From: a virus
Taxonomy: Duplodnaviria > Heunggongvirae > Uroviricota > Caudoviricetes
DNA length: 54,993 nt
IMG/VR virus record: IMGVR_UViG_2923302340_000009
Span: 1-54,993 of that record
Strand: one strand, 5' to 3'
A model generated the notes under the pieces. It saw only the letters and a program-made list of their open reading frames with translations, did no database searches and was not told where the DNA came from. How positions within the stretch are numbered: position 1 is the stretch's first letter; each line of letters begins with the position of its first letter. Both the position numbers and the translations under genes were made by a program. Below, in pieces: positions 5,246-37,004 of the stretch.

Positions 5246-8647
<3,402 letters not shown>

Positions 8648-15190: not shown

Positions 15191-15586
15191 TCACATTTCA
15201 TAGGTAATGACATAAGTCAGACCGGCTGAACTCCACAGGCCCGCATCATCGTCGCGCCGGTAGTCATAGCCGCTGGCCACCATACTGGTGATCAAATCTG
15301 ACAGTGCCGGGATATCGCTCATCACCGGATAAATCCGGGACTCCATCCACGCATCCAGCTCTGAATCCGGCACCTGAGCAGGCAGGAAAACTTCGATATG
15401 CAGCTCCGCCTGCCAGGTATCGCTGTCCAGCTCTTCGCCCGTGTATTCAGCGCCGGTGAGATAAACGGCAACTGCCGGAAAATCCGCCTCATCAAAAACA
15501 GCGGGGCGACCATCAAAAAGCGTCGCCCCGGTGTCATGCTTCTCCAGTGCATCCAGTACGGCTGCACGGAGTTCAGTATGTTTCAT
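15191..15586 (-). CDS. U: tail terminator U
   Basis: 131 aa, in lambda order. Confidence 0.95.
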
Positions 15587-16161: not shown

Positions 16162-16172
16162 ACATCCCCCTT

Positions 16173-16523
16173 TCAGCGGCGACGGTTAACGGCAGGCGGC
16201 ACGCCACGCCCAAGCCAGAGATGACAGCTTCCGCCATCATCCGGCGAAACCCGGTCTATCCAGAAGTTTTCCTCACCGATGGTCAGCGTGTCTCCACGCC
16301 GCAGCTGCCGCACCTCATCAGTCCGGACAAACAGGGACGGGCTGGAGCCTTCAACGCGCACGCCCTGTCCGGCATAGCTGATATTTTCAGGGTCATCAAA
16401 AACACCACGTATCACAGCACCGGACTGCTCACCGGATGTCATGGTGGCTGACGTTCCCATGTACCCGCGTATCGTTTCATCAGCGCGGGCAATGGCAGCA
16501 TCGAACAGGTTATCGAAATCAGC
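16173..16523 (-). pseudogene. FII: head-tail joining protein FII, body severed from its start by IS insertion
   Basis: It encodes ADFDNLFDAAIARADETIRGYMGTSATMTSGEQSG...NRRR, i.e. lambda FII without its initiation codon. An in-frame TGA lies just inside the IS end. Confidence 0.9.
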
Positions 16524-16553
16524 GTAAGCGGCTCGTCAGAACCGTATTGATAT

Positions 16554-18125
16554 TTACTGAGAGCTCAGATCAACTTTCCAGGGCAACAGATCGCGTACCC
16601 GGTTTGCCGGCCAGTCCTGGATATGTTCAATGACGTAGCGCAGCCACTTTTCTGGCTCCACATTGTTCAGACGGCATGTGCCGATCAGCGAGTACAACAC
16701 CGCCGCATGTTCACCACCGCTGTCGGAACCCGCGAACATCCAGTTTTTCCGGCCTACGGCCACTCCCCGTAAGGCGTTCTCTGCGATGTTGTTGTCGATT
16801 TCCACCCAGCCATTACTGCAGTACACGTTCAGTGCATCCCACTGTTTCAGCAGGTATGCGAACGCTTTTGCCGTATCTGAGTGACGCGACAGTGTTTTCA
16901 TCTGTTGCTGTATCCAGTCATACAGTGACTGCATCAGTGGCGCGGCTCTGGTTTTTCTTGCCGCCAGACGCTGTTCTGCTGAACAGCCCCGGACCTCTGC
17001 CTCGATGGCATACAGTTCACCGATACGCTGCAGGGCTTCCGTGGTGATGTCGGTGGGCGCTCTTGCATGCACATCGTGGATTTTTCTCCGGGCATGAGCC
17101 ATACACGCGGCTTCCGTTATTCTGCCGGATTCGTATAACGCCCGGTAACCACCGTAAGCATCGGCCTGAAGCACACCGCTGTAACCGGCCAGGTGATTTT
17201 GTGGATGGATACCTTTCCGGTCCGGACTGTACGCGAACCAGACCGCCGGGGGCATCTGTGAACCGGCGTTACGGTCATCACGGACGTAGACCCACAGCCG
17301 GGCTGTCCGGGTTTTACCGCTGCCCGGCTCCTGGACCGGGACGGGGATATCATCAGCATGGACTTTACCGGGCATCAGCACATACTGGCGCAGGACGTCA
17401 TACAGCGGCTCCAGTAGTTCAGCAACGGCACCTGTCCAGCGCCCCAGCGTGGCGCGGCTCAGCTCCACACCCTGACGGCGGTATATCTCTGACTGGCGGT
17501 ATAACGGCAGATGGTCTGCATATTTTCCGGTGACGACATGGGCCAGGAGCCCCGCTCCGGCATAACTGCGTGCAATGGGTTTTGAAGGTACTGGTGCCTG
17601 CACGATATGGTCGCACCGGCAACAGGCCAGTTTCGGACGTTGTGTTTCGATAACCTTAAAGGCGCTGCTGATAAGCTCCAGTTGCTCTGACACATCACAT
17701 CCCAGAGAACTGAGTTCACCACCACAGGCCGGACAGCATTCCTCTTCCGGCCGGATAACCCGGGTTTCACGGGGAAGTGAGGCCGGTAACGGTTTACGGG
17801 CTGAAGACTGGCGCAGGGCGGATGGCAGTACCGGGTCATATTGCTCACCCAGCGTTTCCGCCATTTCTTCCTGAAGTGCGCTGATTCGCTCCTGTGCTTC
17901 CTGTATCTGCCGTTCGGTTTTTGCGCGAAGTTTTTCTGAGCTTTTACCGAACTGCATACGCTGCAGTTTCGCAACCAGCGCCTTCAGCCGGTTGATTTCG
18001 GAAGCATAAGCCGCCACCCGCTGTGAGAGCAGGCGGTTGTATTCAGCCATCTGGCGTATGGTGTCCTGTTGCGTCTGCAACAGTGCCCGCAGGCGGGCGT
18101 TCTCATGAGCAAGTGAGGTGTCCAT
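16554..18125 (-). CDS. tnpC: IS66-family transposase (TnpC/orf3)
   Basis: 523 aa with an N-terminal leucine-zipper-like coiled coil, a CxxC...CxxC zinc motif and a DDE-type core typical of IS66 orf3. Confidence 0.9.
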
Positions 18126-18144
18126 ATCCTCACTTTACAACGGG

Positions 18145-18492
18145 TTATATACGGATTCCAGCGCGTTCCGTTCGTTTCGGGTGCTTCCAGTTGATACCTT
18201 CAAGAAGCATGGATAACTGAGCCGGAGTAAGGTGCACCTTGCCGTCACGGGTGACTGGCCAGACGAAGCGGCCCCGCTCCAGGCGTTTGGTGAAGAGGCA
18301 CAGTCCGTCACTGTCAGCCCACAACACTTTTATCTGGTCACCCCGGCGTCCGCGGAAGATGAACAGGTGTCCGGAGAACGGGTCATCCTTCAGGACGTTC
18401 TGAACTTTTGATGCCAGGCCGTTAAAACCATTTCGCATGTCGGTGATACCGGCAACCAGCCAGATACGCGAACCGGCAGGGAGAGATATCAT
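18145..18492 (-). CDS. tnpB: IS66-family accessory protein TnpB (orf2)
   Basis: 115 aa, MISLPAGSRIWLVAGITDMRNGFNGL..., the characteristic IS66 orf2 sequence. Confidence 0.9.
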   Translation of the reverse strand: MISLPAGSRIWLVAGITDMRNGFNGLASKVQNVLKDDPFSGHLFIFRGRRGDQIKVLWADSDGLCLFTKRLERGRFVWPVTRDGKVHLTPAQLSMLLEGINWKHPKRTERAGIRI

Positions 18493-19169
18493 CAGTGGCT
18501 GCTCCCTTTCATTTCGCGGATAAGTGTCTGTAATAACGCCGGCGTCAGTTTACCTTTAAGCCTGAGAGTTCCGGCCGGCAGAACCAGCTCGCAGCACAGA
18601 CTGTCTGGCAGTGTATTTATCTGTTCAGGTATCTGCACTGGTGCCGGGATTTTATTATCCGGCTCCGGCGTTAACGTCACGGGAAGTAGCGATGTTTCAT
18701 GTTCGCCGGGCGGCTGCAGGCCGCCGTTACGCCAGAGATGCCGCCAGTTAAAGAGCAGGTTATCGTTGATTCCGTTTTCCCGGGCGATCTGCGCCACACA
18801 GGCTCCGGGCTGCAGTGACTGCTCCACTAAGGCGATTTTAAACTCATAAGGGAAGTTGGGCCGCCGGGGACGTTTTTTTACCACGGGGGCTTCGGATATA
18901 ACGGTGCTTTCAGGACGTACGACTGGTACCGTGGAAAATTGTCCGTAAAGGCAGGCATCAAGTTCCTGCTCCGACATGCCTGCGGGCAAAGGCCACGAAA
19001 GGCCAGCTCTCCGAAAGCGCACGAACATACTACAAACGGTTGATTTTGGTACACCCAGGCGACGCCCGGCCACAACCCGGGGTAAATGTTCTTCAAAGTG
19101 AAGACGTAAAGCTTCAGTGATCCAGGTCCGATGTTTCATACGATAGTGTCCATTAAAAATGATGGACAT
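18492..19169 (-). CDS. tnpA: IS66-family accessory protein TnpA (orf1)
   Basis: 225-aa ORF with HTH-like segments. Its stop overlaps the tnpB start. An alternative start lies at 19139. Confidence 0.8.
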   Translation of the reverse strand: MSIIFNGHYRMKHRTWITEALRLHFEEHLPRVVAGRRLGVPKSTVCSMFVRFRRAGLSWPLPAGMSEQELDACLYGQFSTVPVVRPESTVISEAPVVKKRPRRPNFPYEFKIALVEQSLQPGACVAQIARENGINDNLLFNWRHLWRNGGLQPPGEHETSLLPVTLTPEPDNKIPAPVQIPEQINTLPDSLCCELVLPAGTLRLKGKLTPALLQTLIREMKGSSH

Positions 19170-19222
19170 TATTTTTGTAGAGCCGGAGGAAACAGACCAG
19201 ACGGTTTAAATGAGCCGGTTAC

Positions 19223-19233
19223 AAATCAGCCAC
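19223..19233 (-). pseudogene. FII: orphaned 5' stub of FII (GTG GCT GAT TT) with its RBS
   Basis: The coding strand reads gggaggcgct GTG GCT GAT TT directly after the FI stop. Joining it to 16523 after removing the IS and one target-duplication copy restores FII. Confidence 0.85.
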
Positions 19234-19244
19234 AGCGCCTCCCG

Positions 19245-23178: not shown

Positions 23179-23186
23179 CGCCTTTA
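23170..23186. repeat. island-proximal att repeat (core cata[c]atcgcctt)
   Basis: The 13-mer catacatcgcctt (23172-23184) recurs as cataaatcgcctt at 34072-34084, exactly 10,900 bp away. The extended match is 14/17. Confidence 0.85.
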
Positions 23187-23258
23187 TGAAAAGACAGGAA
23201 AAAATAAAATTTAAAAACAGTACATTACGAATGCTCAGACCTATCGTTTAAAGGAGTC

Positions 23259-23280
23259 GCAATACACACTGCAATACACG
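23259..23280 (+). repeat. two direct copies of GCAATACAC(A/G); candidate integrase arm-type sites
   Basis: The copies gcaatacaca (23259-23268) and gcaatacacg (23271-23280) lie ~80 bp from the att core. Three more copies sit at the other island end. Confidence 0.6.
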
Positions 23281-23313
23281 ATTATTTATAAGATGAGCGG
23301 CATCCGTCATAAA

Positions 23314-23552
23314 GCTGGTGGATGCTTTTTCTATGCATATATGCACAGTTTTAGTGGGCGTTAATGTCGATATAGGGATCCCCATATCGAGATTGGATAC
23401 CTGGCTTTTTTCCGGTTAACCTTTAATCAGGCTGGTGGGCTTTACCTGTTTTGTATGAGTGGTCATCATGACCATGTCATAACAAAAACCCCATATTCGT
23501 GGTTTTTCTGTGTCGGGCTATTCTGTCGTTGCTGTGCTGATTTGGCTGGTGG
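23314..23552 (+). repeat. three co-oriented Chi octamers (GCTGGTGG) in non-coding DNA
   Basis: Exact gctggtgg occurs at 23314-23321, 23431-23438 and 23545-23552. Confidence 0.9.
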
Positions 23553-23620
23553 GCTGAATCATCATTACGGCGATGCAGCTATGTAGACGTTCCGGCCTCC
23601 TCAAATTGAGGATTGTGGAA

Positions 23621-23769
23621 GAATCAATGGGTTAGTCTTACTTTCCCGACATCCCCCAATGGGGGTTTTCGAAACAATCAATAGCTTAGGCTTACTTCCC
23701 CGATTTCCTGCATTGCAGGTTTTCGAAATAATCAATGGGTTAGGCCATCGTGCAATTTTGCACTTTGCC
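23621..23769 (+). repeat. tandem units (54, 54 and ~41 bp), each an AATCAATRGSTTAG box plus a short GC hairpin and T-run
   Basis: Unit A (23621-23674) and unit B (23675-23728) are 42/54 identical. The hairpin cccccaatggggg in A becomes cctgcattgcagg in B through paired substitutions. The third unit carries gtgcaattttgcac. Confidence 0.75.
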
Positions 23770-23954
23770 AGCCAGCGCAATGTCGCGTTATCAGTCCTCA
23801 GATGTGAGGGATGTAGCCAGCTTTTCCCCCAGTGGGGGATATCCAGCACCGACGGCTTAACTGTGCGTGCCAGCACAAGGTAGCCTTGAACTACTTACTG
23901 CATCCCATCTTACAGGCCGTGCCTTCCTGCTTAACTTTTTGCAATGCAACAAGT

Positions 23955-23978
23955 CAGCCAGCGCAATTTTGCGTTATC
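23955..23978 (+). repeat. 24-bp direct repeat cagccagcgcaatNtNgcgttatc (second copy)
   Basis: The first copy lies at 23769-23792 and matches 22/24. It contains the small palindrome cgcaa-tt-ttgcg. Confidence 0.7.
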
Positions 23979-23993
23979 GGGAATATCAGCAAG

Positions 23994-24275
23994 TTACCGC
24001 CGCAATCGTTCCGGCTTCTTCCACTGGTAAGTATTTTTCGCGCTCTCCCTCCGTTGTTGAGAAAGGCGACGATATGCCAGCAACTCAAGGACTCTTGTTC
24101 GTATGTTGCGCATATCCACGCCGTTAAGCTCAATACCGTCACGGCGCATCACCTCAGCCACTACACGCACATAATTATCTGCGGTCACGCTGTCCGGCTG
24201 CGTGGCCTGTTCGTCATGCTGCTTGCTGATTCCACAAGCACGGCGGATTAATCGCAGTATTTCGGATTCAGTCAT
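23994..24275 (-). CDS. hypothetical basic protein downstream of the island small terminase
   Basis: 93-aa ORF, 12 nt after the terS-like stop. No family recognised. Confidence 0.5.
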   Translation of the reverse strand: MTESEILRLIRRACGISKQHDEQATQPDSVTADNYVRVVAEVMRRDGIELNGVDMRNIRTRVLELLAYRRLSQQRRESAKNTYQWKKPERLRR

Positions 24276-24286
24276 AGCGTACTACG

Positions 24287-24829
24287 TTACTTATCTTTAT
24301 TCGGCTGCAACTTATCCGGTACGTTTCCGGCAGTTTCCATCAGATAATCGGACAGCATCAGCGGTATGTTTTCGTCAAGTTTTGCGCATGCGTTACAGGC
24401 TCTGATAACTTCTTTTTTCAGTCCATCCAGCATAGACGGCTTCATGTCGGGAAACTTCCTTGTCATGGCAAGCGGCAGGCTGTCCATGATTGAAGAAATC
24501 TGACTCGCCAATTTTGAAAGCACGTATATACAAAACGCTGTATCAATAACGTCGCCGCGTTCGCGCTCGTTTTTAAGCTCCTGCGCCTCTGCCTGTGCTG
24601 TCAGCAATCTGATCCTGACTCGTAGGAGTTCATCATCATCAATCTCGCCTTTGTCGTCTGTAATCTGGTTAATTGCATTGCTAACCCGATTGTCTATTAC
24701 GCTGGCAACATCATAAAACGCCTCGCGGCCTTTACGTTCAACGGGAGTCACTCCCCACTTGTCGAACGCTGTCGCACTTACACGGCAGCTTTGCGCCATG
24801 TTTTTTTTGTTCATCAGGTGCGATTTCAT
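24287..24829 (-). CDS. small terminase subunit, Nu1-like (island-encoded)
   Basis: The C-terminal half (AQAEAQELKNERERGDVIDTAFCIYVLSKLASQISSIMDSLPLAMTRKFP...) aligns with Nu1 in this same window (AQADAQELKNARDSAEVVETAFCTFVLSRIAGEIASILDGIPLSVQRRFP...). The N-terminal wHTH part is diverged. The start at 24829 follows a GGGGA RBS; the ORF track starts at a GTG at 24841. Confidence 0.85.
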   Translation of the reverse strand: MKSHLMNKKNMAQSCRVSATAFDKWGVTPVERKGREAFYDVASVIDNRVSNAINQITDDKGEIDDDELLRVRIRLLTAQAEAQELKNERERGDVIDTAFCIYVLSKLASQISSIMDSLPLAMTRKFPDMKPSMLDGLKKEVIRACNACAKLDENIPLMLSDYLMETAGNVPDKLQPNKDK

Positions 24830-24841
24830 CAATATCCCCAC

Positions 24842-25030
24842 TTAAGTAATGTTTCAGGTTGGTGTATTGACTTTATCTTTTCCTTTTTATTCATAGAGAT
24901 AGAGCGAACAACAAAACCACCACCAGCACCCGAAAAAGGCTCATAAATAGCGAAAACCCGCGAGGTCGCCGCCCCGTAGCCTACCGGATCACCGGAAAGG
25001 ACCCGCCAGCCAGAGCGGGCCCTAATTTCA
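24842..25030 (-). promoter_or_regulatory. island cos site (cosQ-cosN-cosB); cosN 12-mer at 24963-24974
   Basis: Positions 24941-25012 are 64/72 identical to the prophage cos (37706-37777). cosN on the coding strand reads GGGCGGCGACCT, the canonical lambda cohesive end. The cosB side toward terS is unrelated to lambda. Confidence 0.85.
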
Positions 25031-25414
25031 TCAACCAATCAGCTTATAGCGACCATCCCGTGCATTGCGGCGTACACGCTCAATCTTGAGGCATAGCGCC
25101 GCATCTGGCTTTTTTGGGACAGGTACGCGGCAATATTCAGAAGCGCGAGGAATATTATTTATCCAGTCGATCACTTCACTTAAATACCAGGCCTTACGCC
25201 CTTCCGTAACCTGCACACGCTCCGGGAACTCTCCACTAGCCTCAAGGTTTAGCAGTGTACGACGACTCAGGGTTGTAATTTCCATCACCTGATTCATATC
25301 AACAAGGCGCTCGCTTAAACACATTTTGTCAGCGATAGCTTTTAATTCCTCTACAGCTGGATTCGGGTACATCATTTCGGCAATTGGCTTAAGGTCATTG
25401 TAATCATTCTGCAT
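25031..25414 (-). CDS. AlpA/MerR-type HTH protein (island late region)
   Basis: 127 aa. The central segment LVDMNQVMEITTLSRRTLLNLEASGEFPERVQVTEGRKAWYLSEVIDWI fits the AlpA-family HTH pattern. Confidence 0.65.
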   Translation of the reverse strand: MQNDYNDLKPIAEMMYPNPAVEELKAIADKMCLSERLVDMNQVMEITTLSRRTLLNLEASGEFPERVQVTEGRKAWYLSEVIDWINNIPRASEYCRVPVPKKPDAALCLKIERVRRNARDGRYKLIG

Positions 25415-25425
25415 TGTATCCCCCT

Positions 25426-25767
25426 TTACACACGAGCCAGCGGCTGAACAGAAATACCTGAGCCAACAAACGCTGCAACCTTTACTGACAGTTCTTTAAC
25501 AGACTCAGGCCAGTTCAGAGCATCAACATTTAAGACACCTGTCTTATAGACCTGAGCCTGTGTTTTTTTCGCGGTGTCGATTTGTACAGCGGAAACATAA
25601 ACCGCTTTACCTACGCTCGAACCATCCCATACCACCAGTGCACCTGTTGCATCTTCCTGCATCAGTGGCGTAAATGCAGGAATTACCCCTTTATTAGCTG
25701 AAAATATCCCCAGCGTAGTCACCAGTGCTTCAGTGCCAGCCATGAGTTCAGTGTAATGAGTAGCCAT
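25426..25767 (-). CDS. head decoration protein D homologue (island-encoded)
   Basis: 113 aa with a strong RBS. It shares the D pattern TPLM..D....LV.WDG....AV...YK.G......L.WPE......AF.G..ISV with the helper D at 20763-21095. Confidence 0.75.
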   Translation of the reverse strand: MATHYTELMAGTEALVTTLGIFSANKGVIPAFTPLMQEDATGALVVWDGSSVGKAVYVSAVQIDTAKKTQAQVYKTGVLNVDALNWPESVKELSVKVAAFVGSGISVQPLARV

Positions 25768-25776
25768 TGCTCCCCC

Positions 25777-26823
25777 TTAGCCAATGCGAACGGTAACAAA
25801 ACGATTGATGCGGGCCGGTATTGGCTGTGGTGCTGAATGTGTCTGCACATATTCAATAGCCGGATCACCAGGCACAATATAGTTTTTCGGTGCAAGTTCG
25901 GCTTTAGTCAGCCCCATTCGGATTAGCTCCGGATCCTGAATACCGCCATAGGCGACAATCCCCTGAAGAGCCGTATTGCCAAGCACCATCAAATCAGGAT
26001 CAAGGAAATGTTTTTCTGTTCCGTCCTCGTCGGTATAACGCCCGCTGTAAACAACAATCGCAACATCGCCCATATACCCTTTAAAACTCACCGAATCACC
26101 AAGGTCTTTAAGGGCCGTTTCCAGTTCGGAATTAGAACCACGACGGGTATCCAAAGCCTCTTTTATCGCTCTGAATGAACGGTATTTCTTCCATACATTA
26201 CCACCCATAATGATGATATTAGTGACGCCCTCACTAAATTCTGCGTAGCTCTCAATATCATCATTTGGATCAAAAGTTTCTTTATCCTTACCTGACCACT
26301 CAGTACCGCCAGACTGAGTGATGATATTTTGTGGTTTTATATTCCAGTCCAGCTCATAACGTTCAATACCATCGCCCTCAATGATATTTTTCCCCGTTGT
26401 GATTGCCTGAACAGCAAGCCATTCAATACGTGCACGAATAGCTTTAGCCTGATTTACAATCGCCTGTTTAACTTTAATATTACGCGCCCCAAAAGCATTG
26501 TATTGCTCAGGTGACACACCAGCAGGGCGCACAGCTAACTTATTTGGATCAATGCTGCTTTTCGGCTTCATATAACCTGGACGAATTGTTTTTGATTCGT
26601 ATCCCTCATCTCGTGAAACTTTACTGCCCACCATAGGAGAGCAAAACGCCGCGATCGGGATATTTGGATCGTCGATCGTATCAAGAATAATGTCTCTCGA
26701 TTCAAACATTACCGAGCGAGTGAAAAACAAACTGGTAAACAACGCATTTAATTTTTTTTGCACATCTTCAGCATTAGCCACCTGCACAAGCTGTGTAGGC
26801 GAATATAAATCAACCATACTCAT
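25777..26823 (-). CDS. major capsid protein E homologue (island-encoded)
   Basis: MSMVDLYSPTQL... compares with lambda MSMYTTAQLL. A long collinear similarity includes GGTEWSGKDKETFDPNDDIESYA...DTRRGSNSELETALKDLGDSVSFKGYMGDVAIVVYSG against the helper E. The start could be 26823 or 26817. Confidence 0.88.
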   Translation of the reverse strand: MSMVDLYSPTQLVQVANAEDVQKKLNALFTSLFFTRSVMFESRDIILDTIDDPNIPIAAFCSPMVGSKVSRDEGYESKTIRPGYMKPKSSIDPNKLAVRPAGVSPEQYNAFGARNIKVKQAIVNQAKAIRARIEWLAVQAITTGKNIIEGDGIERYELDWNIKPQNIITQSGGTEWSGKDKETFDPNDDIESYAEFSEGVTNIIIMGGNVWKKYRSFRAIKEALDTRRGSNSELETALKDLGDSVSFKGYMGDVAIVVYSGRYTDEDGTEKHFLDPDLMVLGNTALQGIVAYGGIQDPELIRMGLTKAELAPKNYIVPGDPAIEYVQTHSAPQPIPARINRFVTVRIG

Positions 26824-26988
26824 CCTCTTTACATTCATTACAAATAATTGTGAATATATTCTATTACCGATGTCTGCTATGCGAACACATGCAACCAAGT
26901 GCAATGTTGTATAAAATATGCCGTAACAACTTCAGTGCTGATAATTCGTGTTAATGTATTTACTTCCTTTGGTCGGGATTTATGTAGC

Positions 26989-27017
26989 ATGCCGGAAAAT
27001 CTATTTTTTTCCGGCAT
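26989..27017. other. 11-bp-arm hairpin (atgccggaaaa-N7-ttttccggcat) between the ssb and capsid genes
   Basis: Read directly. A T-rich run follows on the plus strand only, so its role as a terminator of the minus-strand operon is uncertain. Confidence 0.5.
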
Positions 27018-27034
27018 CTTTTTGTTTGCAGAAT

Positions 27035-27457
27035 TTAAAACGGTATATTATCGCCGTACGGATCATCATTCCCCGACTGTTGTTTTGCCCTGTTCAGTGC
27101 GTCAGTGGCCTGCCCCTGCTGGCCTTTTTTGCCGCCCGGTCGCGCCGTTCGCGCACTGATTACGCTGTCTGCGATAACCTGCCAGCCCCGCCGCGTTTCG
27201 CCGTTCTGGCCTGTCCACTGGCTTACCTGCATGTTACCCGCCACGCTCACCAGTTCGCCTTTGTGGTGTTTTGCCAGTGCGTCGGCCTGTCTGCCAAACG
27301 CCAGGACGGATAACCACATCGTCGCCGTTCCGTCATCTGCCTGGCTGCACGGCAGGGGAACCGCCATACTCGCCATCGCCATTTGTGTCCCTTTGCTGGT
27401 GGTCTTTAACTGCGGGTCAGCCACCAGCCGCCCGTAAGCCGCTATCTGTGCTGTCAT
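27035..27457 (-). CDS. ssb: single-stranded DNA-binding protein
   Basis: 140 aa with an OB-fold-like N-terminus, a Gly/Gln-rich linker and the acidic SSB tail ...DDPYGDNIPF. Confidence 0.8.
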   Translation of the reverse strand: MTAQIAAYGRLVADPQLKTTSKGTQMAMASMAVPLPCSQADDGTATMWLSVLAFGRQADALAKHHKGELVSVAGNMQVSQWTGQNGETRRGWQVIADSVISARTARPGGKKGQQGQATDALNRAKQQSGNDDPYGDNIPF

Positions 27458-27705
27458 GCTGTCTGCTCTCCGGTTTTAACATTGATGGTTGTCACCTGTT
27501 CCGCTTCGGCAATCTCCCGTTCTGTCAGCGTGGCAAAGTTTGCCGCTGCTGTGGTCATAAATGCGCTTATCAGGTCGGGATGTTCCTTCGCGTATCCTGC
27601 CCGTGTGTGGTGGTCTATCGCTTTGATTGCCACCTTTAAGGAAAGCTCTGTCATGTCTAACGCTTTATATTTTGCCTGTGTTCTGTCTCTGCGAATTTTG
27701 GTCAT
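27454..27705 (-). CDS. hypothetical protein
   Basis: The ORF overlaps the ssb start (ATGA). The likely start is MTKIRRDRTQAKYK at 27705; the tracked ORF extends to 27768. Confidence 0.5.
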   Translation of the reverse strand: MTKIRRDRTQAKYKALDMTELSLKVAIKAIDHHTRAGYAKEHPDLISAFMTTAAANFATLTEREIAEAEQVTTINVKTGEQTA

Positions 27706-27818
27706 TTGTCGCCCCTGATTCATGTTTTCGGCTGGCATGTTTGTTAAGTGATTTTTATGTATGCGCATTTATTTTCACCCCCCCTCGTTTAAAAAGTTTT
27801 TAGTTGTGCCTCCCCCCC

Positions 27819-28037
27819 TCTACCCATCTACCCGAATGCTCATCATGTCAGTAATGGCGCCGCTTTCAGCGGGTAGATAGCTTTTTTGACTCCTCTACCT
27901 GCCGTCTACCCTGCTACCTGAAACTGATAAAATCAGGTAGAAGAGGTAGAGAGCTTTTATTAGCCTTCTACCTAGCCCTATATCCACTTATCATGTTGAA
28001 TAATATGCATTTATTTCGTTCAGGTAGATGGGGTAGA
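27819..28037. repeat. island replication origin: at least 10 TCTACC/GGTAGA iterons flanking an AT-rich core
   Basis: tctacc occurs at 27819, 27827, 27894, 27905 and 27967. ggtaga occurs at 27872, 27936, 27945, 28023 and 28032. The AT-rich stretch at 27975-28020 lies immediately downstream of the primase-helicase gene. Confidence 0.8.
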
Positions 28038-28053
28038 TGGCTTTTACAAAAAA

Positions 28054-29808
28054 TTATAAAAACGCGTCGCAATCGTCTGTTGTAATTGCGTTGGTCTGCG
28101 TTACTCCCTTAACTTTTCGCGTAATATATTCATGCCCGTAAACTTTCGCCGCTGGCTTCATGGCCTTGCTGAACTCAGCCACGTTTAGCGGTTTGCTCCT
28201 GCCCGCGTATGCCATAAACGCCAGATAGACGCGGTAAAGGCTGTTCCTGGTCGTGTACTTCACTGAATCACCACCGCCACCCATCATCAGGCCGCGCGCT
28301 TCCTCCAGAAAATTCAGGAACTGGCAAAACTCAATAACCGGATCCGTCTGTTGCTTTATTGCCAGTGCTTCATCACCGTCACGCTGTTCCAGTAGTAAAG
28401 CCCGTGCCTTCTCAGGGTCGGTAAAGTTCGCCAGCAATCGGCGGATAATAACGGGGATTTCAGCCGCAATCTTTTCCGGTAGCTCCCTGTCTTTTTCGGC
28501 CTCACTGACGATATTGTCGAAACGGAAAATCACGCGACGACGTGCCACACCTCCGGCCCGTTCGGTGAATATCATCGGGTTGTTGTTGGTCGCCAGCACC
28601 ACCGCCCTGATTACCGCCGTGAAACGCTTTTCATATTTCGGGTTAATTTCCACGGGGTCGCCGCCTGTGATTTTCTTGATGCCCGTTCCTTCGCCTGTAT
28701 ATTTCGGCTGGTCAGCCAGGACGATAAGACGACTCCCGACAACCTGCGCACGTCCACCAGCATCATCAAGCGATGTCATTTCAGCGCTTACCGTGTTCTG
28801 TTTCCCTGCCAGAAGGCTGGCTATGTGTGTGAATGTACTTTTACCGCTCCCGCCGTCTCCGGTGGCCTCAATAAACATCTGCCAGTCGTACCGGTTCGCC
28901 ATAATCATGTACAGCGCGGCACATATACGCATCATCTTGCGCGGGTCTTTTCCGGCTGCGTGCTCAAGCCATTTATGAAAGTTTGGCGCGTTATCGCGGA
29001 TGTTCTCCCCTGGTGCTGGTGGCGTGTACTCAATGCCGTTGTGCGTGGTGATCCAGTTCTCCGGCGTGTGCGGGGAAAATTCCCCCGTTTTCAGGTCAAG
29101 CGCACCATTGGCGAACGGCAGCAAATCGCCAGACGGCTCGCCCATTGGTTCGGCAATAACTTTTAACGCTTCCACGGCGTTATTGATTACGCGCTTGCTG
29201 AAAGTGGCCCTGTGCTCTGAATAGATCGCCACCATTTCGCGGCTAAGTTCCATTGTGCTGACCGGACACCATACCCCGCCGCGCCATACGTGAACGATTT
29301 CACTTTCAGGATGTACGCAAACGCCATCAAAGCGATCGGCAAGCAACTGCGCGCGCTCACTGTCCGCCATCTGCGAAAGTTGCGCCTTTTGCTTTACCGG
29401 AAGCTCAATGACCAGACCATCAGAAAGATTCTGGCGTTCACGGGCCAGATATTCGCGCCAGGTCTGCACCTCCTGGCCGTGCATACCCTCAGGATAAAAA
29501 TTTGCATCCTGTACGCCTGCTGCCGCCAGCTTCTGACCAATCGCCTTTATCATTACAGGCGCAAGATATCCGGCCCTGTATATGCGTGCTGATTTTCGGC
29601 CTTCCGGCACAATTTGCAGATTATCCAGTTCGGATAGCTGCTGCTCCCCAAGCCACACAGGAGGCTCATTATCTCCGGCCATACGCGCATCATGTTCCTG
29701 CCATTGTTTCGCGTGTGCCCAGGCATCACTACCCGCAAAAATAATTACTTCTGTTCCTTTGTGTTTTATGCCGCGTGACTGCTGTTTTACGTTCGGTGCC
29801 AGTTTCAT
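28054..29808 (-). CDS. primase / SF3-helicase replication protein (P4-alpha / D5-like)
   Basis: 584 aa with a Walker A motif EATGDGGSGKSTF and a central phage/plasmid-primase-like region. It is adjacent to the iterons. Confidence 0.8.
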   Translation of the reverse strand: MKLAPNVKQQSRGIKHKGTEVIIFAGSDAWAHAKQWQEHDARMAGDNEPPVWLGEQQLSELDNLQIVPEGRKSARIYRAGYLAPVMIKAIGQKLAAAGVQDANFYPEGMHGQEVQTWREYLARERQNLSDGLVIELPVKQKAQLSQMADSERAQLLADRFDGVCVHPESEIVHVWRGGVWCPVSTMELSREMVAIYSEHRATFSKRVINNAVEALKVIAEPMGEPSGDLLPFANGALDLKTGEFSPHTPENWITTHNGIEYTPPAPGENIRDNAPNFHKWLEHAAGKDPRKMMRICAALYMIMANRYDWQMFIEATGDGGSGKSTFTHIASLLAGKQNTVSAEMTSLDDAGGRAQVVGSRLIVLADQPKYTGEGTGIKKITGGDPVEINPKYEKRFTAVIRAVVLATNNNPMIFTERAGGVARRRVIFRFDNIVSEAEKDRELPEKIAAEIPVIIRRLLANFTDPEKARALLLEQRDGDEALAIKQQTDPVIEFCQFLNFLEEARGLMMGGGGDSVKYTTRNSLYRVYLAFMAYAGRSKPLNVAEFSKAMKPAAKVYGHEYITRKVKGVTQTNAITTDDCDAFL

Positions 29809-30104
29809 TTTTTACCTCTGAATCCGTTAATCATGGTTTTCATTTTCTGGATATTTCCCCACGCTTTTTCCCTGCTGATGGGCTTACTGCGGGGTGCGGC
29901 ATATACCAGGGAAAAATCACGCCGGAACTGATAAACAGGCATCACGCAGTCATAGCTATACCCCTCACGGCGGTAAGTGATGCGCCGTTCTGCCACGCCT
30001 TTAATCGTTACCGTGCCGCCGTATTTATCGCGGTAAATATCGCCGTTCATAAATTCAGGTCGAGCGGGGCCGCTGGCAATAAAGCCAGAATTTTTCATTT
30101 CCAT
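29805..30104 (-). CDS. DUF4222-like small protein
   Basis: 99 aa. The motif GDIYRDKYGGTVTIKGVAERRITYRREGYSYDCVMPVYQFRRDF resembles DUF4222 proteins. Family recalled from memory. Confidence 0.5.
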   Translation of the reverse strand: MEMKNSGFIASGPARPEFMNGDIYRDKYGGTVTIKGVAERRITYRREGYSYDCVMPVYQFRRDFSLVYAAPRSKPISREKAWGNIQKMKTMINGFRGKK

Positions 30105-30121
30105 ATTATTTATTCCTCGAC

Positions 30122-30343
30122 TTAACTCGACTTATTTGATAGCAGGGCACTATTTATTGCGTCATTGAGTTTTTCTGCTGATTCATCAATAAGTGACAAC
30201 AGGCCATAAGCAATATTTGCATCTTCATTGTCATTTATGCAATCAAGCCACATATTTAATATTGCTTTTGCTGAATTATTTAAAGTTAATGAACTTTCTG
30301 CACATGCTAACAATTTAAAAAAGACTTCCCGTTCTGTATTCAT
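30122..30343 (-). CDS. hypothetical protein
   Basis: 73-aa ORF in the operon, low GC. Confidence 0.45.
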   Translation of the reverse strand: MNTEREVFFKLLACAESSLTLNNSAKAILNMWLDCINDNEDANIAYGLLSLIDESAEKLNDAINSALLSNKSS

Positions 30344-30535
30344 TTAATCCCCCACCAGCTTACTTTCTTCCTCAATCAAAAAACTAGCGACACTTCCCGA
30401 AAGACGCGCCAGTAGGCTCGCCAGTGCGGATATATCAGCATCTGTAATTTTGTTCGGGTATACCTCAAGAAGGCGGCAAATAATTTCTGTCTGGTGCGCA
30501 CGTTCAGCGGCTTCGTGTAATGTAATTTCCTGCAT
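30344..30535 (-). CDS. hypothetical protein
   Basis: 63-aa ORF abutting its neighbours, which suggests coupling. Confidence 0.45.
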   Translation of the reverse strand: MQEITLHEAAERAHQTEIICRLLEVYPNKITDADISALASLLARLSGSVASFLIEEESKLVGD

Positions 30536-30720
30536 TAATGCACCTCTTTTAATTCATACACTGCTGAAATAATGACTTGTGATAAGCCATATTCTGATGA
30601 TTCGCTTCTCACCGCAGCAATAGCCGTCTGAACATTAACAGCCTTCACATTCTGAGCGATACCAATTGTGTGGCCTATTGGGTTAACAGCTCGGGCAAAT
30701 ACACGGAAGGTTTTAAGCAT
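30535..30720 (-). CDS. hypothetical protein
   Basis: 61-aa ORF. Its start overlaps the stop of the upstream gene (ATGCTTAA). Confidence 0.45.
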   Translation of the reverse strand: MLKTFRVFARAVNPIGHTIGIAQNVKAVNVQTAIAAVRSESSEYGLSQVIISAVYELKEVH

Positions 30721-30910
30721 GACTCACTCCCTGGCGGATTTTTGCAGCGAATACAGCAACACAACCGGACGGGCAACGGCTACGCGCTTCGCGTTCCGTC
30801 CAGGCGGTTACGTGGATGATTTGAGATTCTCCGGCACTCAGTGCCAGAAAACGCCACACAAAGGCCGTTTGTGTGTGTACAAGGTGTGGTATATGATTTA
30901 CAGCAACCAT
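30713..30910 (-). CDS. Icd-like small protein (cell-division-inhibitor-like family of P1/P4-type elements)
   Basis: 65 aa, MVAVNHIPHLVHTQTAFVWRFLALSAGESQIIHVTAWTEREARSRCPSGCVAVFAAKIRQG, with an AGGAG RBS. It is the only credible part of the 356-aa tracked ORF. Family recalled from memory. Confidence 0.45.
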   Translation of the reverse strand: MVAVNHIPHLVHTQTAFVWRFLALSAGESQIIHVTAWTEREARSRCPSGCVAVFAAKIRQGVSHA

Positions 30911-30939
30911 AACGGCTCCTAGTTTACGTTGTTGGTTAG

Positions 30940-30973
30940 ACGCCCCGTATGTGTTCCCAGCACTGCGGGGCGT
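30940..30973. other. 8-bp-stem hairpin (acgccccg-N18-cggggcgt) in the leader of the island early operon
   Basis: Read directly. It lies between the operator repeats and the Icd-like start, so it is a candidate leader or antisense RNA element. Confidence 0.45.
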
Positions 30974-31001
30974 TGCTCTTTGTATTTCAACAATCCTTTC
31001 G

Positions 31002-31079
31002 GTGTGTTTCATGTTATGAGCGCATGAAACACACGTCAAGGCTTTTTGTATTTCTTTTTTTGTGTATACTGAAACACAC
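31002..31079. promoter_or_regulatory. operator-like repeats in the divergent control region
   Basis: A perfect 12-bp inverted repeat gtgtgtttcatg (31002-31013) / catgaaacacac (31023-31034) is present. A third half-site tgaaacacac lies at 31070-31079, just upstream of the RHH-like gene. Confidence 0.65.
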
Positions 31080-31100
31080 CGATGATTAGGAGTTTCAGAA

Positions 31101-31406
31101 ATGGCAACGGCTAACAAAAACGCAAAATCACAACTGACAACTGTCAGAGTCCCACTAGATGTTATGCAAGGGATGGAATCCGTTAAGCTGGACGGTGAAA
31201 GCAATGCCGGATTTATCGTAACCGCCATGCGCGGAGAAATAGCCCGCCGCCAAGCAGAAGGCAGCGGAGAAAATCCCCTTGTGTCGTCACTGGATGCCCT
31301 GGCTAAGGTCGAACAAATCGGCATCAAAGCAGCCGAGGAGATCGGGCAACTCGTCACCGTCGCGCGTGAAGAACTCCAGCGACGCAAGGTCAAAGAGCAT
31401 GAATAG
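31101..31406 (+). CDS. putative ribbon-helix-helix regulator (candidate island repressor)
   Basis: 101 aa with an AGGAG RBS. The N-terminus QLTTVRVPLDVMQGMESVKL...GFIVTAMRGEIARRQ fits a beta-strand plus two helices. It is divergent from the replication operon. Confidence 0.45.
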   Translation: MATANKNAKSQLTTVRVPLDVMQGMESVKLDGESNAGFIVTAMRGEIARRQAEGSGENPLVSSLDALAKVEQIGIKAAEEIGQLVTVAREELQRRKVKEHE

Positions 31407-31463
31407 CCAATATCAGCGCCATAGTTTGAGGAACGCAGGCGCATTGCTTTACAGGACAGCACC

Positions 31464-31643
31464 ATGAGCGACACAGAATCAACCAAAACACCATCACCAA
31501 CTCGTAAGAGACGACGCAAAAATATAGCGCATGAACATGAATCAGAAAGATTCGCACCTTGTTCGTTTGCTCTTGAGAAATTCCTTAAAGAGCACAGGAA
31601 AAAGCTCTCGTTGCAAACCTTGGAACGAACCAAATCTGACTGA
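31464..31643 (+). CDS. possible 59-aa basic protein
   Basis: ATG at 31464 with AGGA 7 nt upstream. It encodes MSDTESTKTPSPTRKRRRKN... and is followed by a terminator. It falls below the ORF-track cutoff. Confidence 0.35.
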   Translation: MSDTESTKTPSPTRKRRRKNIAHEHESERFAPCSFALEKFLKEHRKKLSLQTLERTKSD

Positions 31644-31709
31644 TCACATTGCCCACCAGCCGCAAATGTGGCATTGTTGGTGATGCTTTTGTTTTCCCTT
31701 GTTCCCACT

Positions 31710-31739
31710 GGCGACCCTTTTGCGGTCGCCTTTGTTTTG
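31710..31739 (+). terminator. rho-independent terminator
   Basis: The hairpin ggcgacc-cttttgc-ggtcgcc is followed by tttgttttg. Confidence 0.75.
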
Positions 31740-32318
31740 TCACTGAATGCGGTTACCAAAGTAAAACTCAGGCTGATATTCACGTATCAGCGTTTTTTCT
31801 TCTTCCTCCAGCTCACGCTTTTTGCGCTTACATGCCTGTAGCTCCCTCCCCTTCTCGCTGGCACTTATTTGATATTGCTCTTTACGGCGGGAAAAATCCT
31901 GTAATGCACCCCACGGGATACCATAAGTCCCCGTTTTTCTGATACCTGGTATCACATTTCTGAATACCCAGTTACTGAAACGATGAGCAAATGTGCCAGG
32001 CGTCGTTGCTTTGCGGCTGCGGGCTATTAGTTTGTAGAAACCTGACTCAGAGATAATTCTCATATTCTGATTTCCTCCTGGGGTGTAAGTTAAATTTACT
32101 CCCTTTTCATCATCATCAAGCATCTGCAACGCCGTACGCGAATTGGTTAGTTCCAGCGCAGCACAAACATCTTTTGCAACAAACCACGGATCGCCGTTCA
32201 GATACACCACACGAACGTTCACACTATCAAAGCGCAGAACGACGAGATCACGAATATCGCAGAATTTTTTCACTGGACGAGCGTACCCCTTGCCCGTCAC
32301 GGCAATATTTTTATTCAT
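31740..32318 (-). CDS. Bro-N domain protein (antirepressor-like)
   Basis: 192 aa. VRVVYLNGDPWFVAKDVCAALELTNSRTALQMLDDDEKG...ISESGFYKLIARSRK matches the Bro-N pattern. Confidence 0.75.
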   Translation of the reverse strand: MNKNIAVTGKGYARPVKKFCDIRDLVVLRFDSVNVRVVYLNGDPWFVAKDVCAALELTNSRTALQMLDDDEKGVNLTYTPGGNQNMRIISESGFYKLIARSRKATTPGTFAHRFSNWVFRNVIPGIRKTGTYGIPWGALQDFSRRKEQYQISASEKGRELQACKRKKRELEEEEKTLIREYQPEFYFGNRIQ

Positions 32319-32338
32319 CGCGTTTTTACCTTATAGAC

Positions 32339-32361
32339 AAAAAACCCCTCGTGATGAGGGG
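32339..32361 (-). terminator. rho-independent terminator between the alpA-like and bro-like genes
   Basis: The coding strand reads gcccctc-atcac-gaggggtttttt. Confidence 0.7.
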
Positions 32362-32374
32362 CATTATTTACTGG

Positions 32375-32632
32375 TTATTGCTGTTTTGTTTTTCCAGGTT
32401 TCCATCCAGGATGCCACTCACCACGGATCCATGCCTGAACCTCTGAAAGTCGATACCCTGCAGCACGTTCACCGATCTTGATACGTCGCGGGAATTTACC
32501 TGCCTGCTCCATTTTCCAGCGTGTTGAGTTTGCCAGCGTGGTAAGTGCTATGCACTCTTTTTCACGAATGAACCGATCAATGTCCTTCATTGTGCGCAAA
32601 TCGTTTTCATCAACAAGAGAATAAATTGCCAT
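32375..32632 (-). CDS. alpA: AlpA-family transcriptional regulator / excisionase-like
   Basis: 85 aa. FIREKECIALTTLANSTRWKMEQAGKFPRRIKIGERAAGYRLSEVQAWI is the AlpA pattern. It lies immediately downstream of int. Confidence 0.85.
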   Translation of the reverse strand: MAIYSLVDENDLRTMKDIDRFIREKECIALTTLANSTRWKMEQAGKFPRRIKIGERAAGYRLSEVQAWIRGEWHPGWKPGKTKQQ

Positions 32633-32633
32633 A

Positions 32634-33875
32634 TCACACCACCTCTTTATTAAGCTCGATAACGTTGTTGTTAAATCCTGCTATCGTATTAAGGTAATTA
32701 ACCCACATATTAAGCACCTCAAGTTTTTTCTTTATATGCCTGCTTTTATTGTAAACACCAGCAACCCCTTTCACTTTATGACCTAAAAGAAGTTCGACAA
32801 TATAAGGATCCGCCCCCATATCATTAAGCGTAGTGGAAAATGTGCGCCTGAAATCATGTATGCACCACAAGCCATTAGTATCATGACCAAGACGCCTGCA
32901 TATTCTGTTTGCAGCCCCTGTTATTGTCGCCCTTTGCAAAGCACAACCGACAACATAACCGCGATTTTTTGTTTCTGCGTAAAGATTAACGATCCATTGT
33001 TTTATTCCGTCAGGAACAGGCCTTACTATAGCCTCCTTGTTTTTGCTGTGCTCTTTTGGGACTGTCCATACCCAGTTTTTTAAATCCCATTCGTCCCAGG
33101 TGGATAGCCTCGCCTCCTGCTGTCGGCAACCAAACACCAGGCAGATAACCATTATTCTTCGGTTATATATTGATGACAGAGTTAGCAAATTATTACCGTA
33201 AGCATAAGACCATACATCAGCGGTTTCATTGATATTAAGAACGCGATCCCTTATACCGGATGAGCGCCCGACATAACTTACGTTAATATCTCCAAAGGGA
33301 TCGCACGCGATGTATTGCCTGACGCGACAAAAACGCAACGCCTGTTTGATATCAAGAAAAATTGCACCAGACATAACAGGCGCATTTTTTTTGATCCTGT
33401 CAAAGACGGTAAGCCATGTGTGTAATTTGCACTGTTCTATAGCCATATCACCGATATAGGGGAAGATATGCTTTTCAAATCGTTTTATTAAATATTCATG
33501 CTCTTTTCTGGCTGTTGTGGCGTGATTGTCGTACCAGTAAAACAGCGCATCCCTTACGGTCACTGGTTGCATAGTTTTTTCGGCAGCAAGTTTTATTTGC
33601 CTGCGGGGGTCCAGATTTTCAGCCAGCCATTCACGGCACTGATCACGCATGCGCCTGGCCGTTGCAAGAGACATGTCAGGATAGCGACCAAGTGTAAGCC
33701 ATACCGGAGGGAATTCCCTGCCACCAAGACGATAGTAAAAAACAAAGCTGATCCCCCCAACCATGCTTACACGCACAGACAACCCGCGCCCATCCGCTAT
33801 TGTTTTTTGTTTGTCCTGCCGTTTTCCGACAAGACTCTTTAACAGTTTGTCACTGAGTTTGTTTTCAATAGCCAT
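32634..33875 (-). CDS. int: tyrosine integrase, P4-type
   Basis: 413 aa with an N-terminal DUF4102-like arm-binding part and the catalytic motifs HDFRRT, LLGH and a C-terminal Tyr region. It is adjacent to the att repeat. Confidence 0.92.
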   Translation of the reverse strand: MAIENKLSDKLLKSLVGKRQDKQKTIADGRGLSVRVSMVGGISFVFYYRLGGREFPPVWLTLGRYPDMSLATARRMRDQCREWLAENLDPRRQIKLAAEKTMQPVTVRDALFYWYDNHATTARKEHEYLIKRFEKHIFPYIGDMAIEQCKLHTWLTVFDRIKKNAPVMSGAIFLDIKQALRFCRVRQYIACDPFGDINVSYVGRSSGIRDRVLNINETADVWSYAYGNNLLTLSSIYNRRIMVICLVFGCRQQEARLSTWDEWDLKNWVWTVPKEHSKNKEAIVRPVPDGIKQWIVNLYAETKNRGYVVGCALQRATITGAANRICRRLGHDTNGLWCIHDFRRTFSTTLNDMGADPYIVELLLGHKVKGVAGVYNKSRHIKKKLEVLNMWVNYLNTIAGFNNNVIELNKEVV

Positions 33876-33895
33876 TAAAAGCCCTCAAGAGATTT

Positions 33896-33947
33896 GCAAT
33901 ACACACCCATCCCGATCGCCAATTTGCAATACACATTGCAATACACA
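33896..33947 (+). repeat. three direct copies of GCAATACACA; candidate integrase arm-type sites
   Basis: The copies lie at 33896-33905, 33926-33935 and 33938-33947, in the same orientation as the two copies at 23259-23280. Confidence 0.6.
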
Positions 33948-34023
33948 AAACCGCGAAAAACTGGAAGGGTGATGAACGGTCATCAAAAGCATGGAAAACG
34001 ACATTCCAGACGCAGCAAGGGTT

Positions 34024-37004
<2,981 letters not shown>

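Follow-up and report, generated by a model that had tools for sequence, protein, structure and literature searches.

The classical FII amber mutants of phage lambda, reportedly described by Casjens, Hohn and Kaiser in 1972, are said to have lost gpFII. Elements of the IS66 family are likewise said, following the work of Han and colleagues on IS679 and IS66 in 2001 and the ISfinder entries, to end in imperfect inverted repeats beginning 5'-GTAA. An element is usually assigned to a specific IS as an isoform when its nucleotide identity to the ISfinder reference exceeds 95%. In lambda, a hexamer of gpFII acts as the stopper between gpW and gpU, and the helix ring in which gpW sits is made by residues 4-24 of gpFII (PMC10721106). 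The target duplication of IS66 elements has been reported as 8 bp (PMC6778807), and ISCro1 was first catalogued in Citrobacter rodentium ICC168, which holds 24 copies of it (PMC3072379). Helper-embedded PICI satellites are found at sites such as B:Phage_portal_2:241 in the portal gene (Tommasini, Mageeney and Williams, 2023; PMC10111431), and experiments have shown that, once the helper is induced, they excise precisely and restore the late gene (PMC10111431).

The window, the whole 54,993-nt stretch of viral DNA analysed here (IMG/VR record IMGVR_UViG_2923302340_000009), contains a lambda-like late operon interrupted by an ISCro1-like IS66-family insertion sequence of 2,699 bp (16524..19222, minus strand), with its tnp genes co-oriented with the operon. 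The element enters between nt 11 and 12 of the FII coding sequence, in codon 4, and splits the start region of the gene from its body at the boundaries given by the initial annotation. The perfect 8-bp target duplication claimed there is also present: AAATCAGC, read from the sequence, occupies 16516..16523 on the left and 19223..19230 on the right, the two flanking 8-mers being identical when compared and each directly abutting an element end. Identical 8-mers at two fixed positions have a chance of 4^-8 (~1.5e-5), and the + strand of the 55-kb window contains just 5 occurrences of AAATCAGC. The left junction runs from GGTTATCG AAATCAGC (duplication at 16516-16523) into GTAAGCGGCTCG at 16524, and the right one from GAGCCGGTTAC, ending at 19222, into AAATCAGC CACAGCGCC (duplication at 19223-19230). 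Removal of the element and one repeat gives the predicted empty site GGTTATCGAAATCAGCCACAGCG. The terminal inverted repeats are GTAAGCGGCTCGTCAGAACCGT at the tnpC-proximal end (16524..16545) and, as reverse complement, GTAACCGGCTCATTTAAACCGT at the tnpA-proximal end (19201..19222), with 10 of the first 11 and 17 of the first 22 positions identical. The description of the ends as GTAAGCG-type inverted repeats thus stands as to the repeats and their GTAA start, but they are imperfect, of the form GTAA(G/C)CGGCTC. It is barely conceivable that an assembler misplaced a repeated IS into the prophage: IS copies are frequent break or misjoin points and many IMG/VR contigs end at ISCro1, but a misjoin would not yield a perfect 8-bp duplication together with seamless FII sequence.

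The element encodes three full-length proteins on the minus strand, all scoring above the Pfam and NCBIfam cut-offs for IS66. TnpC (16554..18125) is a 523-aa DDE transposase (PF03050, E=8e-104; NF033517, 480 bits against a cut-off of 180) with additional zf-IS66, LZ_Tnp_IS66 and DDE_Tnp_IS66_C domains. TnpB (18145..18492) is a 115-aa IS66 accessory protein (PF05717, E=5e-40; NF033819), identical to that of the copy in H10407, and TnpA (18492..19169) is a 225-aa accessory helix-turn-helix protein (HTH_Tnp_1; NF038385, 292 bits against a cut-off of 150). The tnpA and tnpB genes overlap by 1 nt and tnpC starts 19 nt after tnpB. These three reading frames, the 8-bp duplication, the GTAA-type ends (GTAAGCGGCTC against GTAACCGGCTC, 17 of 22 positions identical) and the close match to named copies bear out the earlier assignment to the IS66 family. 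Judged by its sequence, the element is very probably ISCro1, a common and already catalogued IS, the name being taken from PGAP-labelled copies: it aligns with E. coli copies annotated 'IS66-like element ISCro1 family' over 100% of its length at 99.8% identity, and across the copies that PGAP names 'ISCro1 family' the nucleotide identity is 97.6-99.8%. It shares with ISCro1 the length of 2,699 bp, the tnpA-tnpB-tnpC order (225, 115 and 523 aa), the GTAA(G/C)CGGCTC termini and the 8-bp duplication, which is perfect in 22 of 29 unique complete ISCro1 copies from the fetched loci. It is nevertheless a sequence variant, differing from the copies in other lambda-like prophages by 63-65 nt, with 15 amino-acid changes clustered in TnpA residues 145-188; the length of TnpA equals that of the PGAP reference. 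At least 80% of the element is contained in 2,180 records.

FII lies between FI (19248-19640) and Z (15586-16161), as in the lambda-type late operon. Its translation start has been orphaned upstream of the IS (19231..19243, minus strand), where the Shine-Dalgarno sequence GGGAGG (19243-19238) and the GTG codon (19233-19231) are followed by GCT GAT TTG TAA, so that only V-A-D-L-stop is read; lambda FII likewise begins with GTG behind GGGAGG. The initial annotation had the ribosome-binding site, the GTG and the first 8 nt of FII cut off within 19223-19233. The separation is as described, with the first 11 nt cut off from the rest of the gene; as a small correction, GGGAGG falls just outside that end. 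The remaining 3' part (16173..16523, minus strand) runs, after the duplicated nt 4-11, from the last nt of codon 4 to codon 117 and the stop, and in tblastn lambda gpFII matches it over residues 2-117 at 98.3% identity. When 16524-19230 is deleted in silico, the check proposed at the outset, the 117-codon GTG-initiated FII frame is recovered. It encodes VADFDNLFDAAIARADETIRGYMGTSATMTSG...NRRR, which shares 115 of 117 residues with lambda gpFII and hits PF05354 (Phage_attach) with E=4e-19. Lambda, E. coli EC93 and two contigs with identical gpZ all have an uninterrupted FII with the same flanks.

The 3' part by itself lacks both a start codon and a ribosome-binding site. Its frame is closed upstream by a TGA inside the IS (16538-16536), and no ATG, GTG or TTG start precedes Met23 (16460), its first ATG, across the IS/FII junction. 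A tnpC-FII fusion was considered, the two being in the same frame, and rejected since a TAA and the TGA intervene (stops at 16556 and 16538). The IS likewise showed neither an outward promoter nor a strong terminator: promoter-like sites are absent from 16000-19400, including the IS end, and terminator-like sites there do not rise above chance. Nor did tblastn with lambda gpFII find a second FII homologue in the window.

The events may be reconstructed as follows. An ISCro1 copy would have transposed into a lambda-like, DLP12-type (intD) prophage, duplicating 8 bp of its target. The FII ribosome-binding site and GTG would then be left upstream of the IS, encoding just Val-Ala-Asp-Leu-stop, with the remaining ~113 codons stranded downstream of tnpC, behind two stops and without a usable start or Shine-Dalgarno. 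Full-length gpFII, the linker between gpW on filled heads and the tail end formed by gpU, would not be made. Since FII lacks a ribosome-binding site, a start codon and an in-frame entry, loss of head-tail joining is likely. Induction would at best give DNA-filled heads and free tails unable to join, and we infer from the gene's disruption both the loss of gpFII expression and the tail-less-head phenotype. Altogether the insertion very probably precludes full-length gpFII and leaves heads and tails unjoined, and the position of gpFII as the stopper between gpW and gpU (PMC10721106) supports the earlier proposal that an FII knockout should block head-tail joining. As in the lambda FII ambers, gpFII would be lost, filled heads and tails would be expected not to join, and gpFII supplied in vitro or in trans should complement the defect. 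It differs from the ambers in being an IS insertion in a resident prophage instead of a point mutation, with a phenotype deduced from the DNA.

Could FII function nonetheless be kept, through a shortened gpFII initiated at a rare start (CTG codon 7, ATT codon 12) or at Met23, or through the gpFII of another lambdoid prophage in the same cell? In E. coli 2020C08-115, where the IS lies close by, PGAP calls a 'head-tail joining protein' of 111 aa downstream of it, and a product lacking residues 1-6 alone might retain some function. However, no Shine-Dalgarno-like sequence precedes codons 7, 12 or 23, no promoter-like site exists in the IS end, and the Met23 product would lack the whole gpW-contacting helix (residues 4-24). 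Supply in trans by a co-resident or superinfecting lambdoid phage is possible because gpFII is a diffusible structural protein, and E. coli often carries several lambda-like late regions (a 7-kb query, itself partly IS, finds a median of 3 places per genome), but such complementation leaves this prophage genetically incompetent. Retention of function is considered very unlikely.

Outside the IS, the portal gene B is also interrupted, at codon ~277, by a 10,899-bp element (23185..34083, minus strand) that has the features of a helper-embedded PICI: a tyrosine integrase, a late-gene site, co-orientation with the late genes, no replacement sequence, and restoration of B on excision. It carries int, Bro-N, DUF4222, a D5-type primase, SSB, E-like capsid and D-like decoration genes, as well as an AlpA-domain gene, a Nu1-like TerS and a cos-like segment. 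Its att identity block ATCGCCTT (aaggcgat) stands at 23177-23184 and 34076-34083, and the element matches the published site B:Phage_portal_2:241 at 119 of 119 attR and 79 of 80 attL positions when compared with Eco10269.11. Excision in silico leaves the attB junction GTGAAGGCGATGTATGCC and a 533-aa gpB identical to that of lambda at 528 of 533 residues. The satellite resembles published helper-embedded PICIs in the att block aaggcgat, in its length of 10,899 bp (as Eco14781.11), in late-gene co-orientation and in the int / Bro-N / primase / late-zone layout. What sets this window apart is that the helper's FII gene, downstream of the satellite, is also knocked out by an IS.

This second interruption bears on whether the prophage was already dead when the IS arrived, through the split portal gene or through an undetected defect in an early gene, so that the IS would be irrelevant. 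Such a history is quite unlikely. B is indeed split by a 10.9-kb element, and the early region was checked by gene presence and length only; but the element sits at a published att site from which such satellites excise precisely (PMC10111431), and excision in silico restores the 533-aa gpB, so the B lesion is expected to reverse. The repressor, Q, O, P, holin-region, R, Rz and int frames are all present and full length. Each late gene from nu1 to J gives one full-length single tblastn alignment except B, which the satellite splits, and FII is the only irreversible lesion found in the late genes. Other defects could still make the prophage non-inducible, since its early, regulatory and lysis genes were checked by presence and length only. 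The claim that FII loss would keep the prophage from making infectious particles even if everything else worked holds for the FII block, but the prophage is not otherwise uninterrupted, and even heads and tails would first require excision of the PICI from the portal gene to restore B. The satellite uses the neck and tail of its helper, so the FII defect would strand it as well.

In an annotation, this prophage is best recorded as defective in particle formation, and FII as a pseudogene disrupted by ISCro1. It adds one more case of an IS inactivating prophage morphogenesis genes, a well-known route of domestication. The insertion is real but ordinary, a routine event with a known IS, and opens no new question.

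The initial annotation also held the event to be recent, on the intact target duplication and the undegraded flanking genes. As given, this argument is weak: an intact 8-bp repeat survives long periods. Better support comes from the intact tnp frames and from a junction found nowhere else searched, and a recent insertion is plausible on these grounds; the sequence assigns no date to it. Both exact junctions are absent from 185,579 species-representative genomes (GTDB), the exact left junction is absent from JGI metagenomes, and the exact junction is absent from IMG/VR. Among 5,426 complete E. coli genomes, a 300-bp junction query returned only an independent insertion shifted by 8 bp. A near-identical prophage without the IS was not found, the best match being 97% identical over 75% of the 20.9-kb early half. 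Exact-protein look-up of FI gave no record; that of gpZ gave two contigs, both with FII intact, which were rejected as a pre-insertion sibling with only 96.7-98% DNA identity. The exact TnpC protein, present in 1,275 blocks of the protein collection, proved too widespread to mark relatives.

Alternatively, the IS may have resided for long in a domesticated, vertically inherited prophage at the DLP12 locus undergoing slow decay, which is rather unlikely. The same B/PICI junction, in related intD-type prophages, is found in 61 of 5,426 complete E. coli genomes, and some relatives are visibly decaying; in EC93, E contains an internal stop and ren is frameshifted. An ISCro1 insertion in E with the duplication GATCAAAC is common to ~30 diverse genomes, H10407 and NCTC86 among them, which shows that insertions of this kind can persist, and at bacterial substitution rates a 16-bp duplication pair long stays perfect. 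Against long residence, none of the other genomes, metagenomes and viral contigs searched contains the exact junction, the three tnp frames and the late genes are full length, and TnpC is identical to the widespread form.

ISCro1 has inserted independently at no fewer than 18 other positions in lambda-like late genes; besides the E. coli cases in E, C and FII, others lie on IMG/VR contigs. The targets comprise nu1, A, B, C, D, E, FII, Z, U, V, H, J and lom-like regions, with, for instance, an insertion in C in HCP5S3_I2 (duplication GTTGATTG). Like the present insertion they have 8-bp duplications and mostly the orientation of the late operon, but positions and duplications differ and none shares the AAATCAGC junction. 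The nearest, only 8 bp away, is in FII of E. coli 2020C08-115. The window's insertion is independent of the others: the 2020C08-115 duplication, GGTTATCG, lies 8 bp from that in the window and its IS copy differs at 63 nt. The two variants thus occupy abutting duplications (GGTTATCG then AAATCAGC) in the same orientation, and of the 19 ISCro1 sites mapped in lambda-like late or lysis regions, 14 are co-oriented with transcription. These counts would fit the idea, distinctly unlikely though it is, that the 5' end of FII is a micro-hotspot and that ISCro1 prefers co-orientation with late transcription in lambdoid late operons; if true, it would point to a so far unrecognised determinant of target or orientation in an IS66-family element, or to selection for co-oriented morphogenesis knockouts. 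An "AACAG" motif upstream of the target, striking in three loci (L006-L008), is a selection artefact, those loci having been ranked by BLAST similarity to the window's flank, and is absent from 90 unbiased unique ISCro1 left flanks. These 90 flanks show a weak preference for G/C at -11/-10, T at -5 and A/T at -3, of at most 0.26 bits per position.

The window carries a lambda-like prophage in reverse orientation, with J at about 5.2-8.6 kb, nu1 at 37.0-37.5 kb, the cos region near 37.7 kb, R and Rz at 38.6-39.5 kb, P and O at 45.7-47.4 kb, bet and exo at 50.3-51.7 kb and an intD-type integrase at the right end. All late genes give a single full-length alignment to their lambda counterparts except the head-tail joining gene FII and the portal gene B. 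In FII, a block of 2,699 bp (16524-19222) is inserted between two identical 8-mers. On the plus strand the left boundary reads CAGGTTATCG-AAATCAGC-GTAAGCGGCTCGTCAG, where AAATCAGC occupies 16516-16523 and the element starts at 16524, and the right boundary reads AATGAGCCGGTTAC-AAATCAGC-CACAGCGCC, the element ending at 19222 and the second AAATCAGC lying at 19223-19230. The two termini of the element, GTAAGCGGCTCGTCAGAACCGT and GTAACCGGCTCATTTAAACCGT, form an imperfect inverted repeat in which 17 of 22 positions agree. The insertion in the first codons of FII described in the initial annotation can thus be read directly from the window. In silico removal of 16524-19230 yields a minus-strand ORF of 117 codons with a GTG start after GGGAGG, a start found in the same context in lambda's own FII. 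The restored product matches the Pfam model Phage_attach and equals lambda gpFII at 115 of 117 residues. The extent first assigned to the insertion and FII start holds overall, except that the ribosome-binding site (19243-19238) falls a few bases past its end. This earlier reading of the insertion is careful and correct, and the event itself is biologically ordinary.

The element encodes tnpA (18492-19169, 225 aa), tnpB (18145-18492, 115 aa) and tnpC (16554-18125, 523 aa), all on the minus strand. The three ORFs score far past the curated thresholds of IS66 models in Pfam (PF01527, PF05717 and PF03050, together with zf-IS66, LZ_Tnp_IS66 and DDE_Tnp_IS66_C) and of NF038385, NF033819 and NF033517, which bears out the proposed family. 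End to end, the element is 99.8% identical to E. coli plasmid and chromosomal copies labelled “IS66-like element ISCro1 family”, and at least 80% of it is present in 2,180 records of the complete-genome set. ISCro1 takes its first catalogue entry from Citrobacter rodentium ICC168; with its 24 copies, it has expanded further in that genome than any other IS (PMC3072379). Compared with the copy in E. coli H10407, TnpB is unchanged, TnpC differs at three residues and TnpA at 15, grouped in residues 145-188; within the protein collection searched, 1,275 blocks contain a TnpC identical to that of the window. Among the fetched loci, 22 of 29 unique other complete ISCro1 copies have a perfect 8-bp duplication; a duplication of 8 bp is also reported for IS66 itself (PMC6778807). 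Because its ORFs have the reference lengths, annotated copies are near-identical and the duplication is the usual one, the element is judged from its sequence to be a structurally intact copy of a known IS.

What remains of FII at its upstream end now reads GTG GCT GAT TTG TAA (Val-Ala-Asp-Leu-stop). The remainder shares the frame of tnpC, and TAA (16556) and TGA (16538) stand before it. A tnpC-FII fusion (minus strand, 16554-16523) was considered and rejected: the common frame is a coincidence, TAA, five sense codons and TGA intervene, and no product is predicted. Read from the IS junction, the remainder offers no ATG, GTG or TTG start before Met23, although a product begun at the rare starts CTG-7 or ATT-12 may be made. 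In the virion, residues 4-24 of gpFII form the helix ring that seats the gpW barrel, while the hairpin 46-62 engages gpU (PMC10721106); a gpFII begun at Met23 would therefore be without its head-side contact. A search of 16000-19400 for sigma-70-like promoters found none, and terminator-like sites there are no commoner than in shuffled sequences. The window contains no second FII homologue, and gpFII may be complemented in trans by another prophage. Given the stops, the lack of a start before Met23, of a promoter and of a second homologue, loss of head-tail joining is the most likely outcome, by inference from classical lambda genetics.

The initial annotation expected no infectious particles even if everything else in the prophage works. 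The other late genes are full length, but B is also interrupted: foreign DNA of 10.9 kb separates its residues 273 and 279. This block (23185-34083, 10,899 bp), co-oriented with the late operon, is a helper-embedded PICI (HE-PICI) of the kind that Tommasini, Mageeney and Williams reported (PMC10111431). Its genes encode a P4-type tyrosine integrase, a Bro-N protein, DUF4222, a D5-type primase, SSB, an E-like capsid protein, a D-like decoration protein, an AlpA-domain protein and a Nu1-like small terminase, and its cos-like segment (24892-25012) is 77% identical to 37657-37777. The bounding att repeats (23177-23184 and 34076-34083) read ATCGCCTT; the identity block of the published site B:Phage_portal_2:241 is “aaggcgat” (PMC10111431). 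The published attR of Eco10269.11 agrees with the window at 119 of 119 positions and its attL at 79 of 80, and the E. coli HE-PICI Eco14781.11 is likewise 10,899 bp long (PMC10111431). Excision in silico restores a gpB of 533 aa, 528 of them as in lambda. Since such satellites excise precisely once the helper is induced (PMC10111431), the interruption of B would be only conditional, whereas the FII lesion would have no dedicated means of reversal. The satellite requires the neck and tail of its helper, and the IS in FII would therefore strand it too. The integrase-portal junction was seen in 61 of 5,426 complete E. coli genomes. One of these junctions is in strain EC93, where the surrounding prophage is DLP12-like and FII is intact; in this related intD-type prophage, ren is frameshifted and an internal stop interrupts the major capsid gene E (5983-7008 of the fetched locus). 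Prophages of this lineage decay through different lesions.

The exact IS junction is absent from the 5,426 complete E. coli genomes, from JGI metagenomes and from 181 IMG/VR stretches with ISCro1 ends, and both exact junctions are absent from 185,579 species-representative genomes. Recency, as first proposed, is supported by the intact ORFs and by a junction unique among these collections, but no date can be assigned, since the searches gave neither a near-identical prophage nor a sibling genome: for the early half, the best match has 75% coverage and 97% identity, and contigs sharing an identical gpZ reach a DNA identity of only 96.7-98%.

Late regions of the lambda type often receive ISCro1. 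When all fetched ISCro1 flanks were mapped onto the window, 18 other distinct sites were obtained, from the lom-like gene to Rz (at about 5000, 5184, 5737, 12138, 15056, 15129, 15466, 15933, 16515, 20654, 20822, 21223, 21485, 34324, 35731, 35904, 37101 and 38544), representing at least 18 independent insertions into homologous lambda-like prophages. About 30 complete genomes, including ETEC H10407 and NCTC86, share one insertion at the 5' end of E, with duplication GATCAAAC. Since this insertion is common to diverse strains (H10407 and DLI.6n among the fetched loci), a lambda-like prophage that an IS has inactivated can evidently survive and become widespread. In C, an insertion (duplication GTTGATTG) occurs in one lineage. 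In E. coli 2020C08-115, ISCro1 lies in FII in the same orientation with duplication GGTTATCG (5009-5016 and 7716-7723 of the fetched locus), exactly abutting AAATCAGC of the window (compare 16508-16523); its copy differs from that of the window by 63 nt, and the two insertions are therefore independent. By our estimate, about 0.04 such close pairs are expected by chance among 19 mapped sites. Relative to the window insertion, 13 of the other sites have the same orientation and five the opposite, so that 14 of 19 place the tnp genes along the late operon (binomial p = 0.03 one-sided, about 0.06 two-sided). Neither the abutting pair nor the skew in orientation amounts to an established bias; both are marginal curiosities. 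Target preference is weak (at most 0.26 bits at any position over 90 unique sites), and an apparent AACAG motif proved an artefact of the BLAST ranking of loci.

ISCro1 and its IS66 family, lambda FII as a target and the neighbouring HE-PICI at its published site are already described, as is the expected phenotype, the classical FII- defect. Particular to the window are the exact insertion point and the three-layer nesting of IS and satellite in one helper prophage.

Three accessory slots of the prophage hold candidate anti-phage genes: a DndB/DGQHR-like protein between exo and xis/int (51869-52933, plus strand), the PADLOC candidate PDC-S59 ATPase in the nin region (43329-44639, minus strand) and a DUF3800/PDC-M04A protein between Q and the lysis genes (40026-40829, plus strand). 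The side-tail-fibre-like gene (2143-4521, minus strand) contains diverged tandem repeats of 189 nt and 42 nt at 3548-4026. Downstream of it, a 346-aa ORF (812-1852, minus strand) carries a Peptidase_S74 (endosialidase chaperone) domain, by which the fibre module differs from stf/tfa of lambda.
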